The translations under genes were made by a program, and so were the position numbers. Positions 3,366 to 19,419 of a stretch of DNA of 64,000 nucleotides are shown one piece after another. Each line of letters starts with the position of its first letter. Position 1 is the first letter of the stretch. The notes under the pieces were generated by a model. That model did no database searches and had not been told where the DNA came from. It saw only the letters and a program-made list of their open reading frames with translations. Source of the stretch: Bacteroidia bacterium (lineage in GTDB: Bacteria > Bacteroidota > Bacteroidia > 2-12-FULL-35-15); contig JAGVJJ010000011.1 of NCBI GenBank assembly GCA_020051175.1, positions 80,257 to 144,256 on the forward strand. Reading direction: 5' to 3'.

Positions 3366-3368
3366 CTT

Positions 3369-3740
3369 TTACACTTCAATCCACTCACAATAATCTGCAA
3401 GGTCAGCTAAATGAATACGGCCATAGGGAACCGATGAGTAATATCCCTGCTGTGCAAAGCGATTTTTCCACATCTTAAAATACTCATCACGTTCTTTGAT
3501 GGAATTGAATGGCGGCACACCAATACGAATGCTGAAACCATCAGGAGAAATAACATCGTATTTTTTCTTTTTAGCAGTGGCTCCCTTCTTTGATGGTTCT
3601 TTCTTTTCAGGAAAAGAGTATTCAATTTTAAATCTACCTTTAACGGGTGTCATGGTAGCTTTCCCACCTCGGTCTTTAATTTTTTGCAAATGGATTTCAG
3701 CTACTTTTTTGCTGCTGTGTGTTTTTGTGTAAGTTTTCAT
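3369..3740 (-). CDS. Hypothetical basic protein (123 aa), last gene of the minus-strand operon
   Basis: ORF lies 18 nt downstream of the preceding gene. It has a K-rich linker and a C-terminal 'QGYYSSVPYGRIHLADL' segment. No family recognised. Confidence 0.5.
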   Translation of the reverse strand: MKTYTKTHSSKKVAEIHLQKIKDRGGKATMTPVKGRFKIEYSFPEKKEPSKKGATAKKKKYDVISPDGFSIRIGVPPFNSIKERDEYFKMWKNRFAQQGYYSSVPYGRIHLADLADYCEWIEV

Positions 3741-3758
3741 GGTATATGGTTTTTGTTT

Positions 3759-4670
3759 TTATGCTGCTTTTGCTGTGTTTAATTTTTCGGTAGCAATAGG
3801 ACTTTGATAATTTACTTCGTGATACCGGATAAGTTCACTAATGAGTTTTACAACCACTTCATTTCGGGTTTTATAGATCAGCTTACCGTAGAAATCCCGC
3901 TCCATCATCATTCTGCGGATCATTCCGTTTTCCTCTGTGTCTAAGTATTTTTTGCAGGCCCGTATATAGGCTTGCACACTGCATCCCCGGAGCTTCAGCT
4001 TACGCATGTTCACGTAAACAAAAAACCGGATGTTACCAATGAGATATTGTTCTTCAACAATGATCGTTGCAATACGGACCAGGAAGTAGTTTGGAATCCG
4101 GTTACGATACCGAGTAACATCATCCACCTGTTTGTGCAGGCGTAACCAGGTACAGTTCTGAAATTCGGTTGTAGTGATCTTCGCAATGGACTGGTGTGAG
4201 ATCATAATATCCAATCCATGATGACGGTTAGTGGTAAGCAATCCAACAATGGTTTGCCCTTTTGCACCTGTCATGTATTTGTCCAGGTCTTCCAGCACCA
4301 GCAGGCCATCAACAAACTGTTTCACCATGCGCTCTACCATATCTCGCTTTTCTTCAATGGACATGGTTTCACCACAGCGGGTGAGCGGACGTATTCTCCT
4401 TGCACGGATCTGCTTTAAATCACGGATGTATTCGGGATCAACGGTGATGTAACATTCGTAATCATCATCGTTCACATCGAAAATTAAAACCTTGCGGCCT
4501 TTCCTGCCAATGGCAGGCTGATCCCGCATGTAGTTTTCAATTTCTAAAACGTTACGAAAGGTTTTACCAACGCCAGTCTCTCCGCAAACCAGCATGAGCA
4601 TTGGCTGGCGCTCGTCCTGCTTTTGAACGAGAACGATCCCCTGAAATTTTGGCTGTTCTGTTGCTGACAT
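3759..4670 (-). CDS. P-loop NTPase, Zot-like
   Basis: Walker A is LVCGETGVGKTF and Walker B-like is LLVLEDLDKY. 'TTNRHHGLDIMISHQS' resembles the Zot-family RH.G.D motif (from memory). No TM segment seen. Confidence 0.6.
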   Translation of the reverse strand: MSATEQPKFQGIVLVQKQDERQPMLMLVCGETGVGKTFRNVLEIENYMRDQPAIGRKGRKVLIFDVNDDDYECYITVDPEYIRDLKQIRARRIRPLTRCGETMSIEEKRDMVERMVKQFVDGLLVLEDLDKYMTGAKGQTIVGLLTTNRHHGLDIMISHQSIAKITTTEFQNCTWLRLHKQVDDVTRYRNRIPNYFLVRIATIIVEEQYLIGNIRFFVYVNMRKLKLRGCSVQAYIRACKKYLDTEENGMIRRMMMERDFYGKLIYKTRNEVVVKLISELIRYHEVNYQSPIATEKLNTAKAA

Positions 4671-4696
4671 TCATTTTCAATGTTCCGGGTCAGTAA

Positions 4697-5602
4697 TTAT
4701 TCAAAGGTTTCCAGCGCAGAATCCGGTAAGCCTGTTTTAGAGCCTTCCTTCCTGGTGTGAACGGGTTCTTCATAAACTACTTCCGCTACTTCCTCTTTCT
4801 CATTCTCCGCTTTGCTTTCAGCAGTTTCTTCTTCCCGTTCATTTTCTTCTTCAGATTCGGAATCTTCCCTGGCGGCTCTAACTTCTTTTCGGATGATATC
4901 ACGGATGCGTTCAACCAGCATTTCATTTTCCGACCGGATCTCCATTACCACTTTGGCTTTCTTGATAATGATTGATAACGCAACCATTAGTAATTGCTTT
5001 TCAGGACTGAGCGCTGCCGCTTTTTTCCGAAGGATATGAACGAGCAGGGGACGAAGCAGCGCTTTGTCTTCATCGTCCAGCTTAATGCGCTTGATGTTTT
5101 TTACATTCTGTTCCTCGATCACCTGGATAACTTCTTCAAAGTCGTAGAAGTCTTTATGCTTACGAATGGTTACAAAATATCCTGCTCCAACTTCCAGTAC
5201 CGTGTTATTGATTGTTCCGATAATACTGTCGGCCATCAACCCGGCATGTTCCAATGGCATACTGAATTCTTCCTCCTTAATACCTGTTCCGGCATCACCT
5301 TTATTTTCTTCATCGGGATCGGCATTAATTTCTTGTTCAGGCGCATCCAAAGGTTTTTCTTTGGGTTTTTCCTTTGGTTGTTCTTTGCTTTCGTCTGGGG
5401 TCTTATTTTGACCATTATTTTCGGTTTTATCCGAACCGTTCTGACTTTCTGTTTTGGTATTGGTGGCATCCCCGGAAGGATTGTTTTTTTGAACTACCGG
5501 CTGCGCCAACGGACTATCGTTTTCATCCGGGATAGGTTCAAAGGAAATATCCTGCGGATCATTCTTCAAAACCTTTTCAATTAATTCTTTATTTTCTGAC
5601 AT
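4697..5602 (-). CDS. Hyper-acidic low-complexity protein (301 aa)
   Basis: E/D/K-rich N- and C-terminal tails flank a ~120-aa ordinary core. It lies in the operon with a 6-nt gap to the upstream gene. Confidence 0.55.
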   Translation of the reverse strand: MSENKELIEKVLKNDPQDISFEPIPDENDSPLAQPVVQKNNPSGDATNTKTESQNGSDKTENNGQNKTPDESKEQPKEKPKEKPLDAPEQEINADPDEENKGDAGTGIKEEEFSMPLEHAGLMADSIIGTINNTVLEVGAGYFVTIRKHKDFYDFEEVIQVIEEQNVKNIKRIKLDDEDKALLRPLLVHILRKKAAALSPEKQLLMVALSIIIKKAKVVMEIRSENEMLVERIRDIIRKEVRAAREDSESEEENEREEETAESKAENEKEEVAEVVYEEPVHTRKEGSKTGLPDSALETFE

Positions 5603-5608
5603 CTGTTC

Positions 5609-6058
5609 TTAATTTAATTTTCCAATAAATTCAACCAGTACTGATTCAACCTGCATGTATTTTGAAACAAACTTTGTGTTGCCTTTCGGCACGGCCAGAT
5701 ATTCGGCAGCTTTGCCATAACCATAGGCAACGGTGCGTTCGCTACACTGAAAGGATATCCCTATTTTGGGAAAGGTGTCTCCGGTGTACCTGCGTAATAA
5801 ATGAAAACAACATCTGCGGGCATCTTTGTATTCACGCACGTTGCTCACATAGAACAACTCCTCGTTAAGATCAAACACTTTGGTAGCCATGCTCACCAGG
5901 TATTGTGTAATCACCTTTATTTTATCGTGTTCGCTGGGCTGGATAGAAGTATTGGTGAGAAAACTGTCCAGCAGATGAATGGTTTTGGAAAGTCCGAGCT
6001 TTCCAATAACCTTATCAATGCTTGTTTGCAGCGTATTATAATCCGATGTGGTGTCCAT
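5609..6058 (-). CDS. Small HTH protein resembling DnaA domain IV
   Basis: ARRCCFHLLRRYTGDTFPKIGISFQCSERTVAYGYGKAAEYL parallels the DnaA C-terminal pattern R..a.yL.r.lt..s...IG..f..rdHsTV (from memory). Confidence 0.4.
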   Translation of the reverse strand: MDTTSDYNTLQTSIDKVIGKLGLSKTIHLLDSFLTNTSIQPSEHDKIKVITQYLVSMATKVFDLNEELFYVSNVREYKDARRCCFHLLRRYTGDTFPKIGISFQCSERTVAYGYGKAAEYLAVPKGNTKFVSKYMQVESVLVEFIGKLN

Positions 6059-6140
6059 TTTTTGCCTTGATTTGCTGTTTTTGTATTGCCGTATTAATTA
6101 CGGTTTATTGTATATTTTACGGTTTCAAAAGTAATTTTTT

Positions 6141-6890
6141 TTAGTCAGGTACAACAAAAATTTTATAACAAGTATCATATTTCCCCTTGTTCAGGCAGAA
6201 TTTTCCTACCAAAAGCCTTCTTGCCCCTAACTGGCCTTTAAATCCCCTTTTCGTTAGTTCTCCGGGCAGGATCGTGTCCTTTTTATCTGCCAGCAGCGCT
6301 TCCAGTATTTCTTCGTCTGAAGGCTCTATTTGAGGTTCCAGTTCTTGTACCGGCTCCGGTTCGGGGTCAGTTTGTTCTTCTGTTACCGGTTCTTCCGGCT
6401 GGTCCATATCGGCTATGGGCTGTTCTTCTGCTTTTTCCTCAGAAACCGGCTGCTCAGAAACAGGTTCTTCAATTGGTTTTTCTTTCTCTGCAACAGGCTG
6501 TTCTTCTACCTTTTCTTCAGTAACCGGTTGCTCAGATGCAGGCTCCTCAATGGGTTCTTCTACAACAAGTTCTTCGATCACCGGTTCCTCTTTTACTTCT
6601 TCGGGAGCGGGATCTGTAACCTGTTCCTGTACTTCAGGCTCCGGTTCTTCTTCCTCGTCATTGTTTTCCAGTTGCCCCTCGAAAAATTCTTCAAGATCTT
6701 CATCCAACTCATCCGACAGCGTTTCGAGTTTATTTAGCAGCTTTTCCCGGTCTTCATCAGTGGTATGTTCAAGATCTTCTTTAAGTTCTTCAAAACCTTT
6801 AATGCGTTTGTAAAGCATTTTCGGGAGGGTCTTATAATCAATGTTATTGTTCTCCAGGAATTTTTCGTGTGTGAATTGTTCTGTCTTCAT
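6141..6890 (-). CDS. Hyper-acidic P/E/Q-rich protein (249 aa) with an in-frame 26-aa tandem repeat
   Basis: A 78-bp direct duplication at 6418-6573 encodes PIEEP[AV]SEQPV[TS]EEK[VA]EEQP... twice. Confidence 0.55.
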   Translation of the reverse strand: MKTEQFTHEKFLENNNIDYKTLPKMLYKRIKGFEELKEDLEHTTDEDREKLLNKLETLSDELDEDLEEFFEGQLENNDEEEEPEPEVQEQVTDPAPEEVKEEPVIEELVVEEPIEEPASEQPVTEEKVEEQPVAEKEKPIEEPVSEQPVSEEKAEEQPIADMDQPEEPVTEEQTDPEPEPVQELEPQIEPSDEEILEALLADKKDTILPGELTKRGFKGQLGARRLLVGKFCLNKGKYDTCYKIFVVPD

Positions 6891-6918
6891 GTATATGATT
6901 TAATTATTGGTTTATGAA

Positions 6919-7152
6919 TTAGGCAGTTTGTCTTTTTTCTTCTTGCATCCTGGATTCAATCAATCCTGAAATACCTGCGGTGAGTATGGAGGTAACCATT
7001 ACCACACCTACGGTTTTCAAAAATTCTTTTGTAGGTGGTATTTTGTATGAAAACTTTCCACCAGCACTTTGTCCGAGATTATAATACAATAGGGCTTCGG
7101 CTATTCCAATAACCAGGCCCACGCTGGTAACTATGATGGCATTTTTATTCAT
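6919..7152 (-). CDS. Small membrane protein (77 aa, two hydrophobic helices)
   Basis: Hydrophobic stretches IIVTSVGLVIGIAEALLYY and VGVVMVTSILTAGISGLI; lies in the operon. Confidence 0.45.
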   Translation of the reverse strand: MNKNAIIVTSVGLVIGIAEALLYYNLGQSAGGKFSYKIPPTKEFLKTVGVVMVTSILTAGISGLIESRMQEEKRQTA

Positions 7153-7167
7153 GGCTTATGATTTTAA

Positions 7168-7782
7168 TTATACTGCTTCAGCATTTTCTTCCAGCTTTTT
7201 GAATTTTTCCTTGATCTCATCCTGAATTCCTTTTATTTTATTCAGTCCCCAAATAGATTTTAATTCATTCAGGAAATTGAGAACAGCCTTTTGTGTTTTC
7301 TGAATTACTGCTGTATCATCCTTCAGGCTCTTGGGAATAAGCGTGGCTGTTTTCACTAATTCCTGGCGCAGCTTAGTAACAAGCGTTTTCTTTTTAGGTG
7401 GTTGTATTTCTCCGCTTTCGATTTTACGCTGACGATCCTCTTTAAGCCGCTTTCGACAATGAGCTAAGTCGTCCAATACCTGTTCTGCTTTTTCAATTAC
7501 TTTTTTTGATTGAACTTTGCGTGTTTCTTTTTTGGTGTTTTCTTCAATCTCATCATGCGTTTCTTCTTTAATTCGCTCAATGTCTTCTTTCACCAGTTCC
7601 AGAGTTTCCTTTCCAATTTCTTCCGCTTCTTTTTTCAATTTCTTATCTCCGGGAAATTGTTCCAAATCAGCAAGTGTCTCATCGAAAATGGAAAGACCTT
7701 TTAATACTCTTTCGCTCAGGAGTTTCTTGGAAATTTTTTCCTTCTCCAAAAGATCGTATGGGTTGTTTTTTAATGTGGCCAT
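7168..7782 (-). CDS. K/E-rich coiled-coil protein (204 aa)
   Basis: Charged heptad-like composition throughout; lies in the operon with an 11-nt gap. Confidence 0.5.
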   Translation of the reverse strand: MATLKNNPYDLLEKEKISKKLLSERVLKGLSIFDETLADLEQFPGDKKLKKEAEEIGKETLELVKEDIERIKEETHDEIEENTKKETRKVQSKKVIEKAEQVLDDLAHCRKRLKEDRQRKIESGEIQPPKKKTLVTKLRQELVKTATLIPKSLKDDTAVIQKTQKAVLNFLNELKSIWGLNKIKGIQDEIKEKFKKLEENAEAV

Positions 7783-7793
7783 GTGTTTTGTTT

Positions 7794-8117
7794 TTAGTGG
7801 TTATATTCTTCTTCGATACCGAGGTTCTTCAGCAAACTGTCCCTGTCGGAAAGTGAAACACGAATGATAAATGTGTCGCCTTCAATCTTTGTGAGAATAC
7901 GGTCGGTGGCTTCCATTTTTTCAATTTCGGTTTCAAATTCAACGGTGTTATAGAACCTCGTATCAATGAGGTATTCTGAGGGTTTTAATGAAGGATGTTT
8001 TTGCTCTTTTTCAATCTGCTTCCAGTCTTCATACAACTGGAGCTTTACATTTGTGCATCCTTTTTCTTTTGCCTTACTCAGAAGGCTTACGAGGTTATCA
8101 ACAGTTGTCTTCACCAT
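7794..8117 (-). CDS. Hypothetical protein (107 aa)
   Basis: ORF starts 15 nt after the SNF2 stop; no motif recognised. Confidence 0.5.
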   Translation of the reverse strand: MVKTTVDNLVSLLSKAKEKGCTNVKLQLYEDWKQIEKEQKHPSLKPSEYLIDTRFYNTVEFETEIEKMEATDRILTKIEGDTFIIRVSLSDRDSLLKNLGIEEEYNH

Positions 8118-8132
8118 GTTAATTACTTTTTG

Positions 8133-11100
8133 TTATGCTGCTTTTCTTAATTCTTTGATTTGTTCCAGTCGTGATTTCATGCGCTTGAAAGAATTTCTTA
8201 ACTGAATAATTTTTGTCAAACGATCTGCGGTTCCCTCCAATATTGCACCTTTCTTTTTCTGTTCAGCTTGTTTTGCTTTTGCTTCTTCAGAATTGTCATA
8301 TACCATCAGTTCCGTCAATAATTTCGGATTAAGATTTGTAAACTCTTTTACACGTTCCGCAACTGTTTTAGGTTTATATCCTTTTTTGATTCGGTCTTTA
8401 AGGATGGTATCGCCTTTTTCCTGAACAGCTTTCTCACCGGTCTTTTCCTCCATGTATTTTTGCTTCTGCTCAATTTCTTTGTTCATTTGTCCGGTTACTT
8501 TCTTCAGGTCAAAACCAATATCCAATCCTCTCGGAGCGAGTATTTGTTCAATGCCTCGTTTAATAGCTGCATTGGCTTTGCGTATCTGGTCGAATACAGT
8601 TTGATCTTTGTAATTGTAAGCGGTGTCCTCGTCTTCGAGGTAATCTTTGTAGATTTTAAACAGGGTTTCAGTACTGCGGGCTTTTTCTCCACTCTTTTGC
8701 GGGCGGTACTTATCCGCTATCTTTTTGATGTGGTCAATATTTTTATTAAAGATCTCCCGCTGCTCCGCAATTTCTTCCAGCACCGTTTTTTGATTGGTAA
8801 TGCCCGTAATCTCGTCCTGCAAGCGTTCTCTTTCTTCCATGAGGATTAATTCAGCCAATGCAAAAGGATCTGTTATAAGTCCCATTTTAAGTTCAGATGG
8901 ATTAAATTCTTCCAGGTTAAGTGCATTTGTTTTTCCGGCACGATACCATATCTCGTTGATCCGGCTGGTTTTTTCTTCCAGCTTTTGAAAAATGAACGTA
9001 TCAATGCTGTCTTCCATCAATGGATTCACTATACGGATATTGGCGTACATATTGCCAAACCTCCAAATACGTCCCTCCAGTTGCTTCACATCGGTTGGGT
9101 TCCAATCCAGCCAACAATTGTATAAGACAGTTGAACGGTTCTGTAAATTGATCCCTTCTTTAATTGTTGCGCTGCCGATAATAATTTTCACATCCCCGGC
9201 AAGGAAGCGTTCTTTGATGCCCTCTTTTTTAGCGGCACTCAAACCGCTTTTGATAATTCCTACCTCATCATCTTTGTAACCGACCTTTTGTACCAGGTAC
9301 TCTTTTATCAAGGGGAAGAAATGTACTCCCGCGTTCATGTAGATCACCTGGCCGGACACTTCTTCATTACGATCTTCATGGAAACGTTTCACAGAGCGAA
9401 TACACTCAATGATATATTTCAGCTTCGGTGAGGATTCTATGTACTCGGTATAAGTTGGGTGCTTTTCAGGATTGCAGGCATAGAGGTAAGGACTAAGTGC
9501 AAGCTGACGTGCAAAGGACATCCCTCGCAGGATTCGTGCGCCTTCCTTTTCTTCCTCACTCATGTGTTTCTCATCAAGAATTTCACCTACATTTTCATCT
9601 TCGCCTTCTTCTGCATCTTCAAAACCTTTTGTATTCACGCAGAAATTAGTGAGACTTGTTTTCCCGGTAACATACATCTCTACATCATTCATGTATTCCT
9701 TTTGCTCTCTTGTCATTGGCAGGTTAGTGGAAATTTGTTTATCCGTTGGTAAAGGAACAATCTGATCGCCCTCTTTCGTATTGAGCATTGGCAATACAAT
9801 CTTATTCGGGCGCTGGATTTTTGCATCTTCTCCCGTCTTGTATGTAATGAATTTGAAAATGAGTTGTTGTAAAGCAATGAGGTTATTGAAGCCCAATACA
9901 ATTTCTCTGCGTTCAGGTTTTAGTTTTGCATTAATCACCAGTTCCATACTGGTTTTGATGAACGTATCGAAAAATTCTTTGATGTTTTTAATTCCCCATT
10001 TTTCCAACTGCTGATAACCGATCAGAGCGAGTATAGAATAAATCTCCAGTGGACTGTTTGTGAATGGCGTTGCAGTTAGCAATAGCACATTACGCATATT
10101 ATTATTACGCAAGATGTATTGGCTAACCATAAAACCACGAAGGGCTGTCATGGATGGCGATCCTGAACGAATTTGATAAGGAGATTTGGAACGGGTTGCA
10201 TTTTCTCCCTCTCCTTTTATTACGCCTTTTACCTGCGTAAAAGATTTTTTCATAGCGTGTGCTTCATCTACTACCATATAGTCAAAACCTAAATCCTCGA
10301 TGTTCACAGAACCACCTTTAATTCCTTTTCCCATCATCTCGTTGATTTTCTCTCCGAGCTTAACCATGTCCCGCTTTTCTTCAGTTCCCTGGTTCAGGAT
10401 GTCGTACAGTTCATTTCCAATGGTACTCCATGTTTCATCGTTGAAGCCAAGCCGGTTAAATCCTTCGTAAGTGAGAACAGAAATAGTATTCTCCGGTACT
10501 GGTTTTATTTTTCCTTTCTCATCACGTAGCTGGTCAACGAATTCTGTTCCCAGGTTATACAGATCTATCACCTGATATTGCGGTAATAATCCTGAAAGCA
10601 TTACTTTCCCCTGATCTACTACACCACGCAGCTCACTTAACCAGTTTTTGTAAGTTTGGTTAGGCACTACAATGAAAGGACGTTTGCATTGTCCGCTTTC
10701 CAATGCCTGTGCAAGGGATAAAATTGCGGTCATGGTTTTACCAAGGCCCACGTCATACGCTACACAACCGGAACCATGCACACTGATAAAGCCAATACCT
10801 TCCCGCTGTGCAGGACGAATGAAAAGCGGCTTGTTTTTAAAAGTGCTGGAACAGGTGAACGCAACGGGAACTTTAAAATAATTGATCTCTACATAGCCGT
10901 TGTATTTAGAGTTCCATTCCTGTTCAATGCGTACCTGATCTTCACGGATCAATGCTTCAGCAAGGAACCGCACAAAGAAATGATCGCCTTCCATTTTTGC
11001 ATTTTGTCTCAGGCGTAATTTTTCTTCTTTGTCGTAGTGGCGTGATGGTGTGCCTGCTTCGAGGTAATACTGAATAATATTCCAGTCGGTTGACTTTTTA

Positions 11101-12896
11101 AAATCATCTTTTGGTAAAGCTCTTAGCCATGTTTTAAAGGCTTCTACAAGTGACACAGTGCCTTCCACGTAATGTCCTTTGTCTTTGGAATAGCTGTTAA
11201 ACTTCGTTCCATCTGTTAATTCATTCACCGGAATTTCTTTTGCGAAACTCGAATCCGGTTTTATAAATAAACGGTTATGGGCGTTTGGATCTGTCAGCGT
11301 AAGTTTAGGCGGCTTAACATTATCAAGCCCTTCCCATTGGCGTTCGTATTGTTGCTTACTGTAGTTTTTAATGATGTATTCCTTTTCAGAAAGTAACTGG
11401 CTTTGCCGTTCATAGATATTCTCTGCGAAATACAATACACTTGGAATAAAACTGCCTTTGTAGTAACAAACGATTCCTGCTTTGAGCCAATGATTCAAAT
11501 GTTTTTCGCTGTCTCCCAATGGCACAACATATTTTGACCAGCCATTCTTTGCATTGAGAATGATCTTTTCATCATTGTAACCTTTGGTCTTACGCTTATA
11601 CCATATCCAGGCTTTTACTTCATCTTCTGAAATACCTTTGTTGTATTGCTGCATCACTTCATCAAAGCAGAGATATTCTTCCGGGCAGCCATCTTCATAC
11701 TTATCCCTTTCTCCGCTGAGCTTTTTCAAAGCCTTTTCAGCACGAACTTTTTTGGTTTCGTTGATAACACGCTCGATATTGTTTTTCTTTTCGGGATAAT
11801 TCATCAGCTGTTGTAATGGTTCTTTGATTTCGGTTTGGAGTGCTTCAGTCTGTTCTTTAGCATCATTAATCATTGGTACATTAATCCCCTGAATAATATT
11901 ATCTACGCTGCCTTTTACTTTTGTAACAGGCTTGTTGAAACGGTCGGTAGTTTGGTATTGCTCACCTAATATTTTTTCGGGATGTTGCTTAAACCACTCA
12001 TCACCGGTGAGCAGGTCAAATGTGCTTTTAGCGAAACCTTGTTTTTCAGGTGTTGTGTCCGGTTTCAGTTCCTTCAAATCAGGATAGCTTTCCAATATTT
12101 CTTCTGGTACTATTTTCCCTTGCTTTACGGCCCACTCAATAATTTTTTCATGCTCTCTGCGGTCTTTGGCATCCAGTATGTTTGGGCTTCCGGTTTTCTG
12201 AATGGCTTTTATTTGCTGGTATTCCAGCGGGGTCATTTCCCATGCGTATTTCGCATCGGTAATATCATTATCACCTATGTAGGATTTCTCCTCCATATCT
12301 TCCGATCCACTACTGGCAATCTTCACTACCGATACATTCGGAAGTTGATTCAGTTCCGATAATGATTTCTTTGAAAGGGATTGATTCAACTTTAAAAGAC
12401 TGAATACTTTGTCCTTTATTTTTTCGGGGTAATTCAGATCGTTTTCAGAAAAATAATTATTGTTTCCACCTGTGTAATCTTTCATGTGATTGATACTGCG
12501 GTACAGAATACCGGATTGCATTCCGTCCTTGTCCATAGAAATATAAATTCCGGCATCAGGTGTGAACATTCCCATCAGGCGGAGATCACCACTTACTGCC
12601 GGACCACCCGGATTAAAATCAACTTCATATTCTGTTAAACCAAGATATTCTGCGAGTTCTCTAAACGCTTTTTTTCCAAGCTTTTTAAAATCTTGTTTAG
12701 CGGCTCCATTTGCAACTTCACTATCTCCGTTATCTCCCATATAGCCGTCAATATGACTGTGCCTTGAAAGAAACGAAGCGAATTTTTTAAGATGATCTGT
12801 ACTTGTTTTCATGTTGTTTAAGTTTTGTTTCCACTCCTTCAACCTTCTGTTGGCTTCCTGGCCGATCTTGCGGAACATTTTATAACCTTGCGCCAT
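8133..12896 (-). CDS. SNF2-family helicase, giant 'polyvalent'-type protein (~1587 aa from the ATG; the ORF track extends to a TTG at 12935)
   Basis: Motif I is DVGLGKTMTAI (~10735-10760). Motif II is MVVDEAHAMKK (~10258-10285). LLLTATPFTNSPLEIYS is also present. The Helicase_C motif is QLEGRIWRFGN (~9055-9120). The ATG at 12896 lies 1 nt after the upstream stop. Confidence 0.9.
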   Translation of the reverse strand: MAQGYKMFRKIGQEANRRLKEWKQNLNNMKTSTDHLKKFASFLSRHSHIDGYMGDNGDSEVANGAAKQDFKKLGKKAFRELAEYLGLTEYEVDFNPGGPAVSGDLRLMGMFTPDAGIYISMDKDGMQSGILYRSINHMKDYTGGNNNYFSENDLNYPEKIKDKVFSLLKLNQSLSKKSLSELNQLPNVSVVKIASSGSEDMEEKSYIGDNDITDAKYAWEMTPLEYQQIKAIQKTGSPNILDAKDRREHEKIIEWAVKQGKIVPEEILESYPDLKELKPDTTPEKQGFAKSTFDLLTGDEWFKQHPEKILGEQYQTTDRFNKPVTKVKGSVDNIIQGINVPMINDAKEQTEALQTEIKEPLQQLMNYPEKKNNIERVINETKKVRAEKALKKLSGERDKYEDGCPEEYLCFDEVMQQYNKGISEDEVKAWIWYKRKTKGYNDEKIILNAKNGWSKYVVPLGDSEKHLNHWLKAGIVCYYKGSFIPSVLYFAENIYERQSQLLSEKEYIIKNYSKQQYERQWEGLDNVKPPKLTLTDPNAHNRLFIKPDSSFAKEIPVNELTDGTKFNSYSKDKGHYVEGTVSLVEAFKTWLRALPKDDFKKSTDWNIIQYYLEAGTPSRHYDKEEKLRLRQNAKMEGDHFFVRFLAEALIREDQVRIEQEWNSKYNGYVEINYFKVPVAFTCSSTFKNKPLFIRPAQREGIGFISVHGSGCVAYDVGLGKTMTAILSLAQALESGQCKRPFIVVPNQTYKNWLSELRGVVDQGKVMLSGLLPQYQVIDLYNLGTEFVDQLRDEKGKIKPVPENTISVLTYEGFNRLGFNDETWSTIGNELYDILNQGTEEKRDMVKLGEKINEMMGKGIKGGSVNIEDLGFDYMVVDEAHAMKKSFTQVKGVIKGEGENATRSKSPYQIRSGSPSMTALRGFMVSQYILRNNNMRNVLLLTATPFTNSPLEIYSILALIGYQQLEKWGIKNIKEFFDTFIKTSMELVINAKLKPERREIVLGFNNLIALQQLIFKFITYKTGEDAKIQRPNKIVLPMLNTKEGDQIVPLPTDKQISTNLPMTREQKEYMNDVEMYVTGKTSLTNFCVNTKGFEDAEEGEDENVGEILDEKHMSEEEKEGARILRGMSFARQLALSPYLYACNPEKHPTYTEYIESSPKLKYIIECIRSVKRFHEDRNEEVSGQVIYMNAGVHFFPLIKEYLVQKVGYKDDEVGIIKSGLSAAKKEGIKERFLAGDVKIIIGSATIKEGINLQNRSTVLYNCWLDWNPTDVKQLEGRIWRFGNMYANIRIVNPLMEDSIDTFIFQKLEEKTSRINEIWYRAGKTNALNLEEFNPSELKMGLITDPFALAELILMEERERLQDEITGITNQKTVLEEIAEQREIFNKNIDHIKKIADKYRPQKSGEKARSTETLFKIYKDYLEDEDTAYNYKDQTVFDQIRKANAAIKRGIEQILAPRGLDIGFDLKKVTGQMNKEIEQKQKYMEEKTGEKAVQEKGDTILKDRIKKGYKPKTVAERVKEFTNLNPKLLTELMVYDNSEEAKAKQAEQKKKGAILEGTADRLTKIIQLRNSFKRMKSRLEQIKELRKAA

Positions 12897-12897
12897 G

Positions 12898-13197
12898 TTA
12901 CAGGATGTGCGATAATTCCTGTTCAATAAGTGCAATGGCAGAACCGATGCCCATGCCGTCTTCTGCTATGTAGCGGATAATCATTTCTTCGAGTTTGATT
13001 TTTCCCTTGTCAGTGCTTTGCATCTCGCATACCTTTGGCCACAGGATGCGGCTGCATTCCTTCAGCTCATCATTAATGAGGGTTCTCAATTCATCAATCT
13101 GCTTGTTGTCATTTGCCATTGCTTGCATTTTAATTGGGTTCATTTCAGTTTTTTTGTTGTAAAGGATGCCGTTCCCCATCAGGTAATTTGAAATCAT
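12898..13197 (-). CDS. Hypothetical protein (99 aa) between the two giant genes
   Basis: ORF is tightly packed between the MTase stop (13216) and the helicase start. Confidence 0.45.
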   Translation of the reverse strand: MISNYLMGNGILYNKKTEMNPIKMQAMANDNKQIDELRTLINDELKECSRILWPKVCEMQSTDKGKIKLEEMIIRYIAEDGMGIGSAIALIEQELSHIL

Positions 13198-13215
13198 ATC
13201 TGCTTCGTGTTTTTA

Positions 13216-16200
13216 TCATTTGTTTTTTCTTAGTACAAGTACATCTGTACCTATGTCGGTGGTATCAAAAATTCTTGATGGTAATCGGTATAGATCAACC
13301 AGGTCAGCTTTAGCTGCAATCTTTTCTTTTGCCTTGTTAAACTTTGCCTGGTTGGTAACAAAGCTGCTTGGGATCAGGTAAATCAGCAGTCCTCCTTTTT
13401 TCAATAGATCAAGCCCCCGTAATATGAAATACTGATCGTATTCGGTTGCGCCTGTGTATTGCTTTTCACCCATACCGGCATACCGGCCTGTGAACTCTCC
13501 GTAAGGTGGGTTGCCAATAGCAAGGCTGTGTCCGGGATTTTGAAATTTGTCCTTCAGGTGAACATTACCAGCAAAGAATAAAGTCTCAAAGGCCTTTTCG
13601 TAAATGTGTGCATGAGGGTAAAGTATCTGAGCTATCCGTGCGGAATAATGATTGGTTTCGTATCCAAAAATGGTTGCATCCTTTGGAGCGTATTTTAAAA
13701 AATTACCTGTGCCTACGGATGGTTCCAGGATAGAGCCTCCATCATATCCGAAGTGTTTAGCCATGTCCCACATTTTCTGTACTACTATTTCGGGAGTATA
13801 GTATTCGTACAACACACCACGTCCGGCAGCGCCTTCTTTGATTAAGCCACCGGAACCTGTAAATTGTCGGATGTAGTTTTTTTCTTCTTCATTGAAAGGG
13901 CTTTCTTCTTTGTCTTTTTTATCAATGAAGTTTTCAATTTCCTTATTGAGATCGTACTGGCTTTGTTTTTTCACTTTTGATGTTGTTGGCTTTTCAATGT
14001 TTTGAGGAAGATCAACCAGTTTATGTTCACTGCTAAAAAGCAAATCAACCAACAATGTCATAACCGGGTTATTCGCCTTATCATCATTATCTATTATCAT
14101 ATCATCCACGTAACTGGCAATTAGCGTGGCTTTCCGTTTGTCTCCGGTTTTTCCAATTGTTACAAGACTTCTCTCGTAGGTAGCAAGTGGTCTTCTCTCC
14201 TTGAATTTCAGGGAAAGCTCCTTTACAATTTGCTGCAATGTGTCAATGGGTAGCTTTTCCAGCTTTGAACTGATAGCTTCACGCAAGCGTGCCTGATCAA
14301 ATTCCATCCCGTTGATAATGGCTTTATTAACTGGATGCTTATTGTCTTCTTTTGTCCAGTAAGTATTTTCCAAGCCTTTGATGATCGTAACTTTATCCTT
14401 TTTAGCAGTTGCAGACTTATTTTCAAGAGTGATATTATTTTCTTCAGCAAACTCTTTCAACGCATCGAGCGCCATATTTAGCTGTTTCTTTTTCTTTTCT
14501 TCATTGCCCAAGATGCTATCCTTGGCAGTTTCCAAAACTTCCAGTCTTAGTTCAAGAAATTTCAGCCCATACTTCAATGCTTCTTCTCTTGTGGAGTAGG
14601 ATTGTCCTTCCACACTTGCCGGAAACGCCAACCCTTCGTGATCTCCAAATTTTTTAGCAGCATGAAGTCCAACCACATAATTTCCATTGGAAGTTTTTAC
14701 AATAGAAACACTTGCCTCGAACTGCGCTCCTTTAGGCATCGGTATTTCTATTTCCTCAAAATTCTTACTGGCTGTTTTAGCGGTGTAAACCCCGTTTTCA
14801 TTGGCCAGCGGATCCGTTACGATAACTTCTTCTTTTTCTGTTCCGGCTTTAGGTGGATTGTCTAAATAATGCTGCAATACTTCTTTGCTTTCTTCCAGGT
14901 TCGTTATGGTGTGTTCTACATCCTTTACCTGCTGTTTGTATTCCAGCTTAGGTTTTCCGGTTTTAGGATTGAGATAGGTTTTCATTTCCCTTTTCTCTTT
15001 CTCAATTCTGTCTTTAATGATCTTCAATCCTTTTTTTATGTCTGCCACCGGGCGGGAGTGTTCAGCAATGGCCCACCATTCATCACCTTCTTTGTTGTTG
15101 TCGAACAACATCTCCTTTAAAGGCTCTACACTTTCATAACCGAGATACAGATTTACGTATGGGTAAATATCATCGGTAGGAAAACCAAGGGCTTTGAAAA
15201 TGTTTCGTCCACGCTTTTCCCATTCGTTAAGCAGGCTTATTCTGTCCACATCAATGCCATGTTCGCTTGGATGCCCGAACTGTATTAGCTCAAACATTTC
15301 GGTTGGAGAGGCTTTGCCAAGAGTTTCATTGGTGATCTTCAGAAGGTGAGGGAAGTTGTTTTTCAACACTTCCTTCATATCGTATATCTGAAAAATCTGC
15401 GAATAGAAAGGTTCTTTCGTACTGGCTGGCACAAGCACGTTAGGAACAAAAGTATCTCCATGCTTTAAGTCTTCAGTAATAGCCTTTGAGTTTAGTGTGG
15501 GAACTGATTTCATGTCTGTACTTTTTTCTTCTTTGTTGAAGTATTCATCAATCAGCTCATTCACCACCTCATTTACCGGTTGCGAGTGGTAACTTTCAAT
15601 GGCTCGATTATCAAGGACGTTGGTAACAACATAGTCCCTGAACCCGCTGATGTCTTCTTCGATTGTATTCGCATGGCCTTTTTCTTTTGCGAGAATAATG
15701 GCAAAAAGATCATCTTGAAAAATCAGGCTTTCATCCTGTATGAGTTTTTCGGCAAAATTCATTTCAGCTTCCAACTGCTCGATTTCATCTTTAAGGGCGT
15801 TTCGTTTAACGTGGGTTACTTTTCCTTGCAGATCCTTCAAATCCTTACGCAACTTTTTGATTTTTTCTTTGCGAGGATTTTCGATGTGATCCCTGAAATA
15901 CTCCATTGCATCCACATAACGGAATGCAAGATCAATCACCGGAAGTTTTTTGTCGAACGCTTCCTGTGCGCTGAATGATCTTTTAAATCCCTGCGCTAAA
16001 AATTGCTCAATAATTTTTGCTTCTTCTTCCGGGGTGTGCAGGCGTTCAAAACCATAATTTACTATTGAAGCAACTTCGGACAAATGAATTTGATGTCCTA
16101 AAGGCAAAATGTCGTCTAACCATTCTGTTAAACCTCTTGTCATTTCTTCGCTTATGTCTCCATCACGATCATCAATTTCATCTTCCGTTTCATTACGGTC

Positions 16201-18192
16201 ATATTTATCCACATAATAAAAACTCAGCCATTCAGCGGTAACGCGAGCTTGCTTTTTTTTTGGTTCAAATACAATGTCTGATTCTAATTGGTTTTCGTCA
16301 TCAACAAACTCATTCAGCCAAACGGAATAGGATGCGTCATCCCTTAAGGAAACCACGTAGGTTATTATTCTTTTTTTATCGCCCTTCTGAATGGTAAGTT
16401 TCCCTTCATACTTTTCTTTATTGAGAGTTGTAAGTAAATCAGGAATAAGTTGGCCCAACTTTTTGTAGGCTTCTCGGAAATAATTTACTTCTGATTCATC
16501 GGATTCGCTTTTTTCTTTGCTTAAATCAATCTTATGTCCTTGATGTAAAATATTAGTGAGCCACTGATTCAGGAATTGATTTAAATCCTTTTTTAATTTT
16601 GGATAAACATATTCCTTACCATCTCCTTTGTCCGGGTAAACTTCCTGGTATTTGAACTGATCCTGAAAGGTCATTGCTTCCGCAGCTTCCAATTCAGGAA
16701 GGATGCGTATCTGCATATCGGGATCTGCGACCATATCTCCGTTCTGTTCAAAGTAGTGAGATAGCGCAATGATGTAATTCCCTTTTTTATCCTGCCCGAT
16801 GTAATCATAGTTCAGGTTCATCAAACCGCCTTTAGGATCTTTCTCCGATTTACCGTGATGCTTCCCGTCCTGGATGTGTTTGAGTAAATCAGGAATAACC
16901 TGCATCAGCTTTTTGTAAATGGAACTGTAAGGCTGCATGAGTGCCTTGCCGGTAGAACGTTTATTAAAACGCTTGAATGACTTTAAAATCCGATTATGAC
17001 TTTCCCAAATGCTCTCGATATTTTTTTCAGTAAGCTCAGGGTAGTTGTCTTTAAACCATTTTTCAAAGTCTTCTTTTGTTATACTGTCGGGCTTGTTGGA
17101 TAGATCTTCCTGTTGAGTTGCCCATTTATAGAATTTGTCCAGCGCCAAGCGTTCTGTTTCACGTTGCGTATCAGCAGGTGTATCATTATTGGAAGAAGTG
17201 ATTGCATTTGTTTCCTCTAATTGATAATGTTCCAAAATTCTACGAGCTTTCTCAATGGCTTTCCTGGAATAGATTTCATTGGGCTGTGTTTTAGACAGAT
17301 TGGTGAAATAGGTATTAACATGACCGGACAAAATATTTTCCTTGCGGGTATAAAAATCAGCCGGTTCTAAATCAACGGAACCTTCAATGGTTTCGTCATC
17401 GTTCCAAATGATTTTGTAATACACATCGGAAAACTTACCGATCAATCCTTTCACAAACAGATCCGCACCGCTCCATGCACTGTAAGCCTTTCCTTCTTTA
17501 TAAAGAGGCCGAAGGTTATCATCCTTCGTAGTGAGTAGAATCTCCCTCAAAGGGGTTTTTCCTTCCGCTTTATCAGAAATTCGTTCTTCCTGAATAACAG
17601 TTTCGGTTTTTACCAAACCCTTGATAGAACTTTTTTTGTAATGCGGTACGTTCTGGCCTTCAGGAAAAATAATTTTTCCTTCATCAAACAAAATTCTTGC
17701 TTCTTTCACATGCAGACGTGGTTTGGCTGCAAGCGCAAGAAACTGATCTCCGAATTCCTTTCGCGCGAAACTGTTAGCAATAACTTCTGCTTTTGGTTTG
17801 GACGGTTCAAAAACAACGTAGTTCTTGACCTGTCCATCTCTAAGCGTTATCATCACATAACTGAATTCCTTTTTCTCGATGTTAGTTTTAACCGCATCGA
17901 ACGTAGGAGACAGAATTAGATCAGGTCCTTCCTGTGATGTGGAGATAATGGCTTCTACCTGCTTTGCAAATTCAATTGCCTGGCTGGTGTTTTCGCCATA
18001 CCACATAACCTGTGATTTACTATGCCTAAATCCCATTGCCCTCAACTTGGGCTGGAGTTCGGGAGATGGCTCGGCATTAAATCGCAGCTCTATCCCTCCT
18101 TGTTTGGAATTAGCGGAAATAGTAAGCTCATCCGCCCATTTGTGGACAGACGATTTTTTCACAGAGTTGGGTTTGTCCTGCTTCTTGCTCAT
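13216..18192 (-). CDS. N6-adenine DNA methyltransferase domain at the C-terminus of a 1658-aa 'polyvalent'-type protein
   Basis: Motif I is ILEPSVGTGNF (~13700-13731). Motif IV is IGNPPYGEF (~13490-13515). The ~1400 aa N-terminal to these include an internal tandem domain duplication (16075-16926). Confidence 0.9.
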   Translation of the reverse strand: MSKKQDKPNSVKKSSVHKWADELTISANSKQGGIELRFNAEPSPELQPKLRAMGFRHSKSQVMWYGENTSQAIEFAKQVEAIISTSQEGPDLILSPTFDAVKTNIEKKEFSYVMITLRDGQVKNYVVFEPSKPKAEVIANSFARKEFGDQFLALAAKPRLHVKEARILFDEGKIIFPEGQNVPHYKKSSIKGLVKTETVIQEERISDKAEGKTPLREILLTTKDDNLRPLYKEGKAYSAWSGADLFVKGLIGKFSDVYYKIIWNDDETIEGSVDLEPADFYTRKENILSGHVNTYFTNLSKTQPNEIYSRKAIEKARRILEHYQLEETNAITSSNNDTPADTQRETERLALDKFYKWATQQEDLSNKPDSITKEDFEKWFKDNYPELTEKNIESIWESHNRILKSFKRFNKRSTGKALMQPYSSIYKKLMQVIPDLLKHIQDGKHHGKSEKDPKGGLMNLNYDYIGQDKKGNYIIALSHYFEQNGDMVADPDMQIRILPELEAAEAMTFQDQFKYQEVYPDKGDGKEYVYPKLKKDLNQFLNQWLTNILHQGHKIDLSKEKSESDESEVNYFREAYKKLGQLIPDLLTTLNKEKYEGKLTIQKGDKKRIITYVVSLRDDASYSVWLNEFVDDENQLESDIVFEPKKKQARVTAEWLSFYYVDKYDRNETEDEIDDRDGDISEEMTRGLTEWLDDILPLGHQIHLSEVASIVNYGFERLHTPEEEAKIIEQFLAQGFKRSFSAQEAFDKKLPVIDLAFRYVDAMEYFRDHIENPRKEKIKKLRKDLKDLQGKVTHVKRNALKDEIEQLEAEMNFAEKLIQDESLIFQDDLFAIILAKEKGHANTIEEDISGFRDYVVTNVLDNRAIESYHSQPVNEVVNELIDEYFNKEEKSTDMKSVPTLNSKAITEDLKHGDTFVPNVLVPASTKEPFYSQIFQIYDMKEVLKNNFPHLLKITNETLGKASPTEMFELIQFGHPSEHGIDVDRISLLNEWEKRGRNIFKALGFPTDDIYPYVNLYLGYESVEPLKEMLFDNNKEGDEWWAIAEHSRPVADIKKGLKIIKDRIEKEKREMKTYLNPKTGKPKLEYKQQVKDVEHTITNLEESKEVLQHYLDNPPKAGTEKEEVIVTDPLANENGVYTAKTASKNFEEIEIPMPKGAQFEASVSIVKTSNGNYVVGLHAAKKFGDHEGLAFPASVEGQSYSTREEALKYGLKFLELRLEVLETAKDSILGNEEKKKKQLNMALDALKEFAEENNITLENKSATAKKDKVTIIKGLENTYWTKEDNKHPVNKAIINGMEFDQARLREAISSKLEKLPIDTLQQIVKELSLKFKERRPLATYERSLVTIGKTGDKRKATLIASYVDDMIIDNDDKANNPVMTLLVDLLFSSEHKLVDLPQNIEKPTTSKVKKQSQYDLNKEIENFIDKKDKEESPFNEEEKNYIRQFTGSGGLIKEGAAGRGVLYEYYTPEIVVQKMWDMAKHFGYDGGSILEPSVGTGNFLKYAPKDATIFGYETNHYSARIAQILYPHAHIYEKAFETLFFAGNVHLKDKFQNPGHSLAIGNPPYGEFTGRYAGMGEKQYTGATEYDQYFILRGLDLLKKGGLLIYLIPSSFVTNQAKFNKAKEKIAAKADLVDLYRLPSRIFDTTDIGTDVLVLRKNK

Positions 18193-18204
18193 CGGAAACG
18201 AATG

Positions 18205-18509
18205 TTCTTATAGGGCATTTAAAAAAATGCTTCTATAAGGGCTTTTGTTTTTAGCTCTTAATAAATGTTTGTTTTCACCGGCTCTTAAGGACTTGAAAAA
18301 AAATTCCTCTTTAAAGGCTTTTAAATTCCGCTCTTATAGGGCTTCATTTTTACCGGCTCTTAAGGCACGAAAAAAAAATCTCTTTAAAGACTTTTTATTT
18401 GCGGCTTTTATAGGGCTTTATTTTTTGCTCTTATAGGAGCTTTAAAACTTTTCTTGTATAGGACATTCAAAACTTTTGTCCTAAAGGATTTTAAAACTTT
18501 TATAAGAAC
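18205..18509. repeat. Iteron-like array: 13 degenerate units of a CTCTTAWAGGRC-type core spaced 23-27 bp, with A-tracts between units
   Basis: Cores start at 18205, 18230, 18254, 18281, 18307, 18331, 18356, 18380, 18404, 18427, 18451, 18478 and 18497. Units 4-6 and 7-9 form a 75-bp higher-order duplication. Confidence 0.7.
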
Positions 18510-19386: not shown

Positions 19387-19419
19387 TGCTATTCCATTAA
19401 AAAAACAGGATTAATCGGC

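Follow-up and report, generated by a model that had tools for sequence, protein, structure and literature searches.

A split methyltransferase and SNF2 ATPase pair on a mobile, virus-like element of Bacteroidota

A 64,000-nt stretch of a Bacteroidia bacterium genome (GenBank assembly GCA_020051175.1, contig JAGVJJ010000011.1, positions 80,257 to 144,256; hereafter the window) holds two giant genes, one ending in an N6-adenine methyltransferase (MTase) domain and the other carrying a SWI2/SNF2 ATPase, within a string of eleven close-packed open reading frames (ORFs). What do these giants do there, and what kind of DNA carries them? A first description, made from the letters and their translations only (the sequence-only reading), had taken the string for one entry-phase or anti-restriction operon built around the giant pair, on an element of 22 kb. 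The explanation that we favour, with moderate confidence, is that window positions 1-21665 form the right half of an integrated, recently mobile, virus-like Bacteroidota element of about 40.6 kb, in which a fissioned counter-restriction pair of the DarB type is an exchangeable cassette of a non-tailed, probably membrane-containing provirus. From its right end, this element consists of a regulatory region with a Cro/cI-type helix-turn-helix (HTH) gene, a repeat array, the giant module, a conserved core, a defence hotspot on the opposite strand, and a structural module.

The eleven minus-strand ORFs (window 3369-18192) encode proteins of 123, 303, 301, 149, 249, 77, 204, 107, 1600, 99 and 1658 aa and are spaced by 6-28 nt, with a single exception of 82 nt at 6059-6140. 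Most of what the sequence-only reading had picked out in them was borne out: the close packing including the 82-nt gap by the ORF list of the window; the MTase motifs ILEPSVGTGNF and NPPYG of giant 1 by alignment and by a Pfam N6_Mtase/Eco57I match at aa 1463-1658; the SNF2 motifs GLGKT, DEAH, TATP and QLEGRIWRFGN of giant 2 likewise, with Pfam SNF2-rel_dom at aa 722-902 and Helicase_C at aa 1191-1294; and both acidic proteins, as well as the pair of hydrophobic segments in the 77-aa protein, by the translations. The proposed likeness of the 149-aa protein to domain IV of DnaA is supported by its family profile, which matches domain IV of Mycobacterium tuberculosis DnaA (3pvp, E 7.4e-5) and Bacillus subtilis DnaA (E 4e-3) in the PDB. 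Weak Pfam Bac_DnaA_C matches recur in the orthologues of this protein, the gene of which lies two genes upstream of that for the 303-aa ATPase.

Within giant 1, a conservation profile over 54 homologues delimits conserved blocks at aa 20-190, 360-560 (DUF6908/DUF1249-like, with the Pfam match at aa 445-553) and 720-1400, followed by a gamma-class N6-adenine MTase at aa 1440-1658, with variable inserts at aa 200-330 and 560-720. In giant 2, blocks particular to the family fill the first 700 aa or so; they are followed by a SWI2/SNF2 ATPase core (aa ~700-1350), which has INO80 and Sso Rad54-like matches in the PDB, and by a basic C-terminal tail. The 53 relatives of giant 1 besides the window protein all show the DUF6908 and MTase architecture; those that bear a name all come from uncultured Bacteroidota, on contigs of a few kb to 3.8 Mb. 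All catalytic motifs of the giants are intact, more than 50 relatives have likewise retained open frames of about 1600 codons, and the giants are some 55-77% identical among relatives, compared with far higher conservation of the ATPase. Beyond DUF6908/DUF1249, the blocks of giant 1 have no match in Pfam, NCBIfam or PDB profiles; PDB sequence and profile searches with giant 1 and with its N-terminal block gave nothing usable, self-BLAST found no internal repeats in the giants, and a literature search on DUF6908 found nothing.

The kinship of the pair is apparent from P0056, a 2655-aa Ruminococcus callidus 'LPD25 domain-containing protein' in which both enzymatic modules are fused in a single chain. 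The MTase of giant 1 (aa 1433-1656) aligns to its residues 1057-1272 (32% identity, E 2e-29) and the SNF2 region of giant 2 (aa 701-1349) to its residues 1780-2382 (E 5e-28), so that the two modules, rightly placed on separate ORFs by the sequence-only reading, are homologous to a single-chain polyvalent protein and stand in the same order. Among plasmids and phages, giant 1 is matched in its MTase domain alone, nearly always within proteins annotated as SNF2-related or DarB-like; the phage matches (PEp14, VvAW1, Lalka and D6; 26-35% identity) are annotated as DarB-like or 'defense against restriction', in keeping with the link to DarB that had been suggested. The giants thus correspond to the 'methylase-helicase dyad' of Iyer et al. 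2017 (PMC5512222), here split. This split is not an assembly artefact, since all homologous loci, a distant one among them, show the arrangement of giant, ~99-aa ORF and giant. As causes of the split, recoding of a stop codon and a frameshift were ruled out by the complete MTase domain with which giant 1 ends, the TGA-TAA double stop that follows, and the three-ORF layout in all relatives. The most probable start of giant 2 is an ATG at 12896 (giving 1587 aa), which lies one base past the end of the 99-aa ORF and is the point from which the alignments to all homologues run; a start at the TTG at 12935 is less likely. The intervening 99-aa ORF itself has no match in Pfam or PHROG.

In common with polyvalent proteins (PMC5512222), the giants are very large, multidomain and borne by a mobile element beside packaging genes, they combine a gamma-class N6-adenine MTase with a SWI2/SNF2 ATPase of the DarB clade in the order and sequence family of the fused 2655-aa protein, and their extra blocks are shuffled between relatives. 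The shuffling is best seen in P0338, a protein of 1172 aa on a 101-kb contig found with the first 687 aa of giant 2 as the query, which joins blocks 22-189, 722-885 and 1126-1256 of giant 1 to blocks 46-194 and 220-293 of giant 2, in a different order and with a different (NPPF) MTase at the end. Such reshuffling is the combinatorial behaviour by which polyvalent proteins are defined, here with a private domain set. P0338 is also useful for setting domain boundaries in the unassigned regions of the giants. Unlike the polyvalent proteins described, the dyad occupies two ORFs with a conserved 99-aa ORF between them, on a carrier that is neither a tailed phage nor a conjugative element; and of the catalogued associated domains (LPD, MuF, zincin/MPTase, ART, ArdC, ParB) none was found, Pfam showing only DUF6908/DUF1249, N6_Mtase and SNF2. 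The sequence-only reading had regarded N-terminal regions unrelated to polyvalent domains as evidence contrary to its view; this is what is found at the level of Pfam names, yet the blocks are shuffled between relatives in the polyvalent manner.

The eleven-gene set recurs in the same order around five relatives of giant 1 (giant, ~99 aa, giant, ~107, ~204, ~77, acidic, DnaA_C-like, acidic, ATPase, ~122), and this synteny was confirmed by all-against-all clustering of 23 sources, i.e. the window and the related loci L001-L022. The string is nevertheless composite and not one operon built around the giants, because the cultured Aquimarina agarivorans (locus L023) keeps the genes for the coiled-coil protein, an 81-aa membrane protein, an acidic protein, the DnaA_C-like protein, the second acidic protein and the ATPase in synteny, with no giants. 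In that genome three unrelated genes precede the core, which itself directly precedes the structural module. Genes 1-4, counted from giant 1 to the 107-aa ORF, are thus an accessory module of one sub-lineage, and genes 5-11 belong to a conserved core, putatively of packaging and morphogenesis. The families differ in size accordingly: there are 54 giant homologues, compared with more than 356 clusters of the jelly-roll-like protein c13 described below and 414 representative clusters of the ATPase. The element family reaches cultured A. agarivorans and a Fulvivirgaceae isolate (BMA10). One further locus, L007 (JAUXSJ010000295.1), has an ATPase 99% identical to that of the window and core genes that cluster with those of the window, and is binned in a Parachlamydiaceae metagenome-assembled genome; all other carriers are Bacteroidota, and this placement is a probable mis-binning of a mobile element.

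The mobility of the carrier, assumed earlier, is evident from near-identical copies with unrelated flanks. Window positions 13216-22400 are found near-identical in at least 20 sequencing runs from 11 studies of drinking water, groundwater, sludge and sediment. Contigs of four unrelated metagenome runs are 99-100% identical to the window up to position 21665 and then show four different continuations; the contig of run X1 joins 21665 via AACT to 22370, and locus L001 diverges at the same base. A contig of 141,565 nt (X9) matches window 1-12100 without a mismatch and 12000-21665 with two, and has no similarity to window 21666-34000 even at 80% identity. On its left side, X9 shows an insert of 6,800 nt after the 123-aa gene, then the same c12-c43 module as locus L009, and then the amidase-fibre-M23 module of locus L027. 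The two sequences part precisely where the M23 gene ends; in L027, a two-component system follows. The element thus extends from 81,026 to ~121,670 in X9 coordinates, from which the order of the left-hand modules is taken as well; its size is about 40.6 kb and not 22 kb, and the window holds the right 21.7 kb. It is integrated, and quiescent where both parts are readable (X1 and X9). The terminal sequence (21560-21668), sought elsewhere in the window and the loci as an attachment site or terminal repeat, was found only at the orthologous end of L001, and the 30-nt loose ends matched none of the upstream modules of relatives. Three runs marked as possible RNA (X26-X28) were rejected as evidence of expression: the unaligned ends of their reads contain no C, or no G, at all, and the runs are probably bisulfite or enzymatic methyl-sequencing (EM-seq) DNA libraries.

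Two further runs reveal that parts of the element have separate recent histories. In X5, positions 5646-21665 are at least 99.5% identical to the window, the ATPase region 3368-5586 is 93% identical at the same depth, and sequence left of 3368 is unrelated. The dominant strain of X6 is 100% identical over 6376-21665 and only 85-90% at 4258-6405. It follows that elements with diverged packaging cores have recently swapped a block in which the regulatory genes stand together with the giants and the first genes of the core.

The best-conserved gene of the element encodes the 303-aa P-loop ATPase (Walker A motif GETGVGKT), which is 90-99% identical across most of 16 GTDB species representatives and 79-89% in five more distant ones. 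The sequence-only reading had called it Zot-like. A Pfam Zot match indeed exists, marginally (E 1.8e-4, 21.4 bits against a cut-off of 20.3); the fold is nearer to the B204 packaging ATPase of Sulfolobus turreted icosahedral virus (STIV). In a Foldseek search of the PDB with a confident AlphaFold2 model (predicted local distance difference test, pLDDT, 90), ranks 1-15 are all B204 of STIV or STIV2 (E 6.7e-8, TM-score 0.65, up to 0.66 on the target), followed by Zot (2r2a, E 1.1e-5) as second-best fold family, and then by HerA, RadA and FtsK. The family profile matches HerA (E 0.007) and, over its full length, B204 (E 0.026), and among 34 family members 14 match DUF87/HerA, 13 Zot and two Pox_A32. 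Because of these family matches, the full-length alignment with the B204 profile and the Foldseek ranking, the protein is predicted to be a genome-packaging ATPase of the B204/A32 type rather than a Zot assembly protein. Like the ATPases of the PRD1-adenovirus lineage (STIV B204, PRD1 P9, poxvirus A32), it is small, soluble and encoded beside membrane-protein genes; it differs from B204-type ATPases in about 100 extra C-terminal residues and in its marginal sequence similarity (E 0.026), and no double jelly-roll capsid gene was found next to it. An identity with the Zot/pI protein of Inoviridae was rejected: besides the difference in fold, the ATPase has neither a transmembrane segment, as judged by a crude script for hydrophobic stretches, nor a C-terminal periplasmic domain, and the element, at ~40 kb, lacks inovirus coat and replication genes. 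Inoviruses are several-fold smaller.

In the X9 contig, 3.4 kb separate the left edge of the window from the start of the structural module, and the earlier statement that no virion genes were in sight holds only since the window ends before it. The module starts with a 57-aa membrane protein, the 290-aa protein c13, five tail-anchored membrane proteins and a 75-aa beta protein, continues with a 265-aa HExxH protein, a YVTN beta-propeller of 600-800 aa (1l0q, E 1e-35), an Amidase_2 protein and about eight small proteins, and ends with one or two fibre proteins, a coiled-coil protein and an M23 peptidase; the Aquimarina locus adds a CHAP domain. Its largest ORFs are those of the beta-propeller and the fibres, the repeats of which match T4 gp34 (E 2.7e-29) and gp12 (E 2e-13). 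Single, mostly C-terminal transmembrane segments were detected in seven small proteins with the crude script and in another, c18, by eye. Protein c13 has an acidic N-terminal tail, a beta-sandwich core and an Arg/Lys-rich C-terminal tail, is conserved at 86-100%, and belongs to a family that includes cultured Flavobacteriia and Cytophagia. In its model (pLDDT 57; core 70-84), the core is a nine-stranded beta-sandwich for which Foldseek returned generic jelly-rolls only, at E ~4e-4 to 1e-2 (luteovirus, cucumovirus and satellite tobacco mosaic virus coats, PRD1 P5, nucleoplasmin, C1q, carbohydrate-binding modules). The fibre proteins (c104) of loci L025, L027 and L030 measure 567 and ~400 aa (721 aa in L030) and vary in length and copy number, as expected for host-range determinants. 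The 265-aa protein (c42; L009:18212-19009 and orthologues), with an invariant HExxH, has no family match and a PDB search gave nothing usable; it is a candidate virion-associated or maturation metallopeptidase.

The element is regarded as virus-like because of its B204-like ATPase, T4-type fibres, Amidase_2 and M23 enzymes (with CHAP in L023), jelly-roll-like c13 core and small proteins with transmembrane segments. It would not be a tailed phage (Caudoviricetes): no TerL, portal, HK97 or tail match was found by Pfam or PHROG in the genes searched, and the only tail-related homology is that of the fibre repeats. Nor was any family of portal, terminase, HK97 capsid, tail tube or sheath, relaxase or type IV secretion system (T4SS) proteins detected among the genes searched. 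The sequence-only reading, which had listed relaxase/T4SS, capsid/terminase and Rep genes as missing, was correct in that none of these families is detected, and incomplete in that structural genes lie just outside the window. An A32/B204-type ATPase, small membrane proteins, a peptidoglycan hydrolase, vertex-fibre-like proteins and temperate integration are shared with non-tailed membrane-containing viruses, i.e. Tectiviridae, Corticoviridae, Autolykiviridae and Sphaerolipoviridae/Simuloviridae (PMC5894146). In contrast to these, the element is larger (~40.6 kb, with literature sizes of 16-19 kb for Simuloviridae, ~30 kb for Sphaerolipoviridae and up to 17 kb for the FLiP group), offers only a weak single jelly-roll candidate, and has fibre repeats of the T4 type, a hotspot for defence cargo and giants of the polyvalent type, which the limited literature searched describes for none of these families. 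The same limited search found no comparable non-tailed proviruses of Bacteroidota, which is no proof that the element is undescribed, and nowhere a description of the split with its intervening ORF, the private shuffled domains, the iteron-like leader or the carrier. As such, the dyad belongs to a known kind; for the carrier, the chance of its being a new virus family is substantial. In its fullest form, to which we give somewhat less than an even chance, this proposal would be of an undescribed, widespread, ~40-kb non-tailed membrane-containing temperate virus family of Bacteroidota with a B204-type motor, T4-like fibres, a built-in defence-cargo hotspot and a capsid protein devoid of recognisable sequence relatives, one sub-lineage of which acquired and actively exchanges a split MTase/SNF2 pair preceded by an iteron array, the first counter-defence giants of this sort to be carried by anything other than a tailed phage or a conjugative element.

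Table 1. Features of the right half of the element in window coordinates. Loci L001, L002, L003 and L005 are related loci that reach the right end; L023 is the giant-less locus of A. agarivorans.
Feature	Position	Strand	Remarks
Cargo hotspot, first half of 6.8 kb	1..3368	+	against the operon; PtuA-like Septu ATPase at 707-2239
c1, 123 aa	3369..3740	-	last gene ahead of the cargo hotspot; 70-91% identical in relatives
P-loop ATPase c2, 303 aa	3759..4670	-	predicted B204/A32 type (FtsK-HerA superfamily); best-conserved gene of the element
c0, 301 aa	4697..5602	-	acidic low-complexity termini, conserved central domain; 42% to Aquimarina; no family match in Pfam or PHROG
c3, 149 aa	5609..6058	-	DNA-binding-type protein; predicted DnaA-domain-IV-like HTH
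Acidic protein c4, 249 aa	6141-6890	-	same order in L023
c9, 77 aa	6919-7152	-	two hydrophobic segments; same order in L023
Coiled-coil protein c8, 204 aa	7168-7782	-	start of the core; same order in L023
c10, 107-aa ORF	7794..8117	-	only in giant-bearing loci; missing from L023
Giant 2, 1587 aa	8133..12896	-	Pfam SNF2-rel_dom and Helicase_C
c7, 99-aa ORF	12898..13197	-	always between the giants; in every locus, 46-94% identical
Giant 1, 1658 aa	13216..18192	-	Pfam and conservation profile over 54 homologues
Iteron-like repeat array	18204..18501	-	in an AT-rich (GC 0.31) leader of 487 nt between the 60-aa ORF and giant 1
c17, 60 aa	18680-18862	-	in L001, L003, L005
c16, ~108-144 aa	18898-19332	-	in L001, L003, L005; no Pfam match
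Cro/cI-type HTH c15	19375..19644	+	orthologues PF01381 HTH_3, 70-92% identical
c19, 142 aa	19641..20069	-	64-73% identical in L003, L005; no Pfam match
c14, 389 aa	20088..21257	-	C-terminal half of GT1-type glycosyltransferase; conserved in all loci reaching the region
c21, 81 aa	21262..21507	-	first gene of the element in this variant; 45-94% identical in L001, L003, L005, L002; no Pfam match
Right terminus and leader of first gene	21508..21665	-	sharp boundary at 21665

The right end of the element (Table 1) holds a small regulatory region and a repeat array. The HTH protein c15 is likely a regulator, as judged from its being the only conserved opposite-strand gene and from its Cro/cI-type HTH. 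The assignment of c14 draws on a Pfam Glycos_transf_1 match (E 3.4e-5, below the curated cut-off), a PHROG glycosyltransferase match of its L005 orthologue (6e-9) and an NCBIfam GT4 match (6e-7). The array consists of a 74-nt period repeated 2.7 times with sub-repeats of 23-25 nt (Tandem Repeats Finder), with boxes such as GCCCTATAAGAGC / YCYWWWAAGAG. The box motif CTCTTWWARGR has four matches, all at 18307-18438, for 0.86 expected over 64 kb, and none of 100 shuffles reached four; it clusters at the same place in L001, L003/4, L005/6 and L002, i.e. in all related loci that reach the region. The array could be an operator for the adjacent Cro/cI-type HTH protein, an origin or a packaging site. 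An additional upstream early module in L003, L005 and L002, with a cI-like HTH protein, two HTH proteins and a 404-441-aa protein with weak replication-initiator matches, is missing from the whole window. Of L003 and L004, which represent the same protein P0020 in two assemblies, one has a heavy-metal efflux and P-type ATPase cluster upstream of the giants, inserted between the glycosyltransferase-like and 142-aa genes, and the other has the longer version of this cluster; the element thus seems to have a second internal site for cargo. A scan for sigma-70 promoters and terminators gave background levels, with a model that does not cover Bacteroidota promoters, and Rfam at gathering and E-value thresholds found only a distant tRNA-Leu and sub-threshold noise.

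Just outside the boundary lies a segment of 704 nt (21666-22369), in place of which run X1 has AACT. Two ORFs are found there, one of 133 aa, which extends 39 nt into the end of the element, and one of 80 aa (22098-22340), which from its motifs we take to resemble an N-terminally truncated GIY-YIG nuclease. The segment ends in a perfect 20-nt palindrome, GTCCCGATAGCTATCGGGAC (22350-22369). A terminator-like hairpin unit next to it (22371-22437) recurs at both ends of a 1785-nt X1 contig (67-nt unit, 1701 nt between), which suggests a small circular or repeat-flanked sequence sharing this unit.

At the other end of the string, past the 123-aa gene, each locus has 0-9 kb of unrelated, mostly opposite-strand genes, the content of which differs from locus to locus. 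The hotspot genes of the window have no homologues at that position in other loci; L012, L014 and L026 have AbiEii-like genes (c47) there, and in X9 6,800 nt separate c1 from the next conserved module. The PtuA assignment was made with PADLOC (E 3.7e-31). The ORFs flanking PtuA are devoid of strong family matches: the one at 66-704 (212 aa) shows a weak HSDR_N nuclease-like match, and the one at 2175-3365 (396 aa) could be a candidate non-canonical PtuB partner.

Taken with the conserved gene order, these features suggest how the element may work. The two giants, as a fissioned DarB-type MTase-SWI2/SNF2 dyad, would be made together with the packaging and morphogenesis genes and act on the DNA of the element itself around entry, with the SNF2 motor running along duplex DNA as the N6-adenine MTase modifies that DNA, and host restriction would thereby be evaded; the family-specific N-terminal blocks may serve targeting, incorporation or further counter-defence. 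Genes 5-11 would not be partners of the giants, and the DnaA-IV-like protein and the ATPase may recognise the genome and pump it into a procapsid. The model is DarB of phage P1, a virion-packaged MTase-helicase that protects incoming DNA from type I restriction and combines the same two enzymatic activities as are predicted here. The giants are co-oriented with the morphogenesis genes at a distance of 11-15 nt, which fits late-cycle production for delivery with the DNA, as for P1 DarB, and recognisable defence genes lie in the separate opposite-strand hotspot. DarB differs in being a single polypeptide of a tailed myovirus with the helpers DarA, Hdf, DdrA and DdrB; the giants are two predicted polypeptides known here from their genes, and no Dar helper was recognisable among their neighbours by Pfam and PHROG.

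Several observations weigh against the proposed provirus and its counter-restriction pair. The weakest link for the carrier is the capsid, together with the fact that no integrase or Rep is recognised in this variant: c13 is a weak single jelly-roll candidate with generic Foldseek matches and a profile that finds nothing in the PDB, so that the capsid protein is not securely identified; no integrase was found at either end; and no replication initiator was recognised, whereas L003 and L005 have a weak Rep-like protein. Depth is 1:1 with neighbouring DNA in X1, and in X9 the element lies inside one contig; therefore there is no sign of active replication. The sole hint of transcription is given by eight short contigs in one RNA-Seq run. 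Some 2,000 residues of the giants have no match to an LPD or other polyvalent-associated domain in Pfam, nor to NCBIfam or PDB profiles. Finally, no relatives were found in IMG/VR (by a single-protein scan with the ATPase and an alignment scan with c13) or in INPHARED and PLSDB (by tblastn with ATPase and c13), and no virome-labelled run was found.

Other explanations of the giants have to be considered on the same evidence. DISARM (DrmD with DrmMI) and BREX (BrxHI/HII with PglX) likewise combine an SNF2-type helicase with an adenine MTase, and the giants might be a host defence of this kind, borne by the provirus and expressed in the lysogen to exclude other phages. The C-terminal region of giant 2 does match DrmD, BrxH and a PLD-helicase anti-phage protein (PADLOC E 1e-13; NCBIfam E 3e-19), the element collects defence genes (PtuA here, AbiEii-like genes in relatives), and a Cro/cI-type regulator just upstream and the short exact RNA-Seq contigs inside the giants would agree with lysogenic expression. 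Yet the matches are confined to the generic Helicase_C lobe at scores far below the cut-offs (52 against 610 bits for DrmD; 69 against 1100), and the signature partners DrmA/B/C/E, PglZ, BrxC/L and PglX, of a type that the sequence-only reading had cited as potential contrary evidence, are absent from this and all related loci, PADLOC reporting none. The MTase moreover belongs to the DarB/polyvalent clade, and the giants lie in line with morphogenesis genes while recognisable defence cargo sits in its own opposite-strand hotspot. A role in host defence is on these grounds improbable. It is a still poorer prospect that the giant module is a replication or maintenance unit, in which the array would be an origin or centromere bound by an N-terminal block of giant 1 or by HTH proteins, and the SNF2 and MTase modules would serve replication, partition or strand discrimination. 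In every locus, even in the distant L002, a conserved array indeed directly precedes giant 1, the leader is AT-rich (GC 0.31), this variant has no recognisable Rep, and the module moves between elements as one unit. But giant-less relatives such as Aquimarina keep the core and must replicate without giants, L003 and L005 carry the giants plus a separate weak Rep-like gene, and no primase, polymerase or Rep fold was detected in the giants by Pfam, NCBIfam or PDB profiles; the array fits an operator for the adjacent HTH protein equally well, and SNF2 ATPases are translocases and not replicative helicases (Iyer et al. 2017, PMC5512222).

The nature of the carrier admits alternatives as well. Polyvalent MTase-SNF2 proteins are commonest on conjugative elements (PMC5512222), and most plasmid matches of the MTase lie in SNF2-related proteins, as would be expected if the carrier were an integrative and conjugative or mobilisable element (ICE/IME) and the giants were delivered by conjugation. 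The hydrolases of the structural module could be accommodated too, as CHAP and M23 hydrolases also occur in Gram-positive conjugation systems. Such a carrier is very unlikely, given that no relaxase, VirB4/TraG, coupling protein or Bacteroidota Tra family was found in the genes submitted to Pfam or in the precomputed Pfam annotation of the loci, that the only ATPase is the 303-aa B204-like protein, that T4-type fibres are present, and that PLSDB has no matches to ATPase or c13. A domesticated or defective virus-derived particle system, resembling a gene transfer agent or a bacteriocin and retaining the giants as cargo, would account for the unrecognised integrase and Rep, the missing early module of relatives, the extreme conservation of ATPase and c13 (86-100%), and the 1:1 depth in X1 and single contig in X9. 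Against it stand the X9 copy, in which an unrelated flank adjoins sequence that differs from the window at no position in the 12 kb checked and at two in the 9.7 kb after that, and the recent module exchange and fast turnover of the hotspot; the near-identical copy with its unrelated flank and the module exchange argue for ongoing horizontal movement, and we consider domestication unlikely.

An integrated, still moving, virus-like element with a split counter-restriction pair therefore remains our preferred explanation, and some of its consequences concern the Bacteroidota at large. The element is common in this phylum, in groundwater, drinking water, sludge, sediment and marine isolates, and is missing from the IMG/VR, INPHARED and PLSDB collections searched, so that surveys of prophages and defence islands may file it as plain chromosome. 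Its opposite-strand hotspot, with PtuA here and AbiE-like and other cargo elsewhere, is a natural place to seek new defence systems, and the ~2,000 giant residues devoid of a named domain are a candidate pool of counter-defence or delivery domains. Since cultured hosts exist, study at the level of particles is directly feasible. If the proposed reading is true, the DarB/polyvalent strategy of joining an MTase to a helicase would reach beyond tailed phages and conjugative elements, and the dyad could work as two polypeptides, moving between related elements as a 15-kb cassette.

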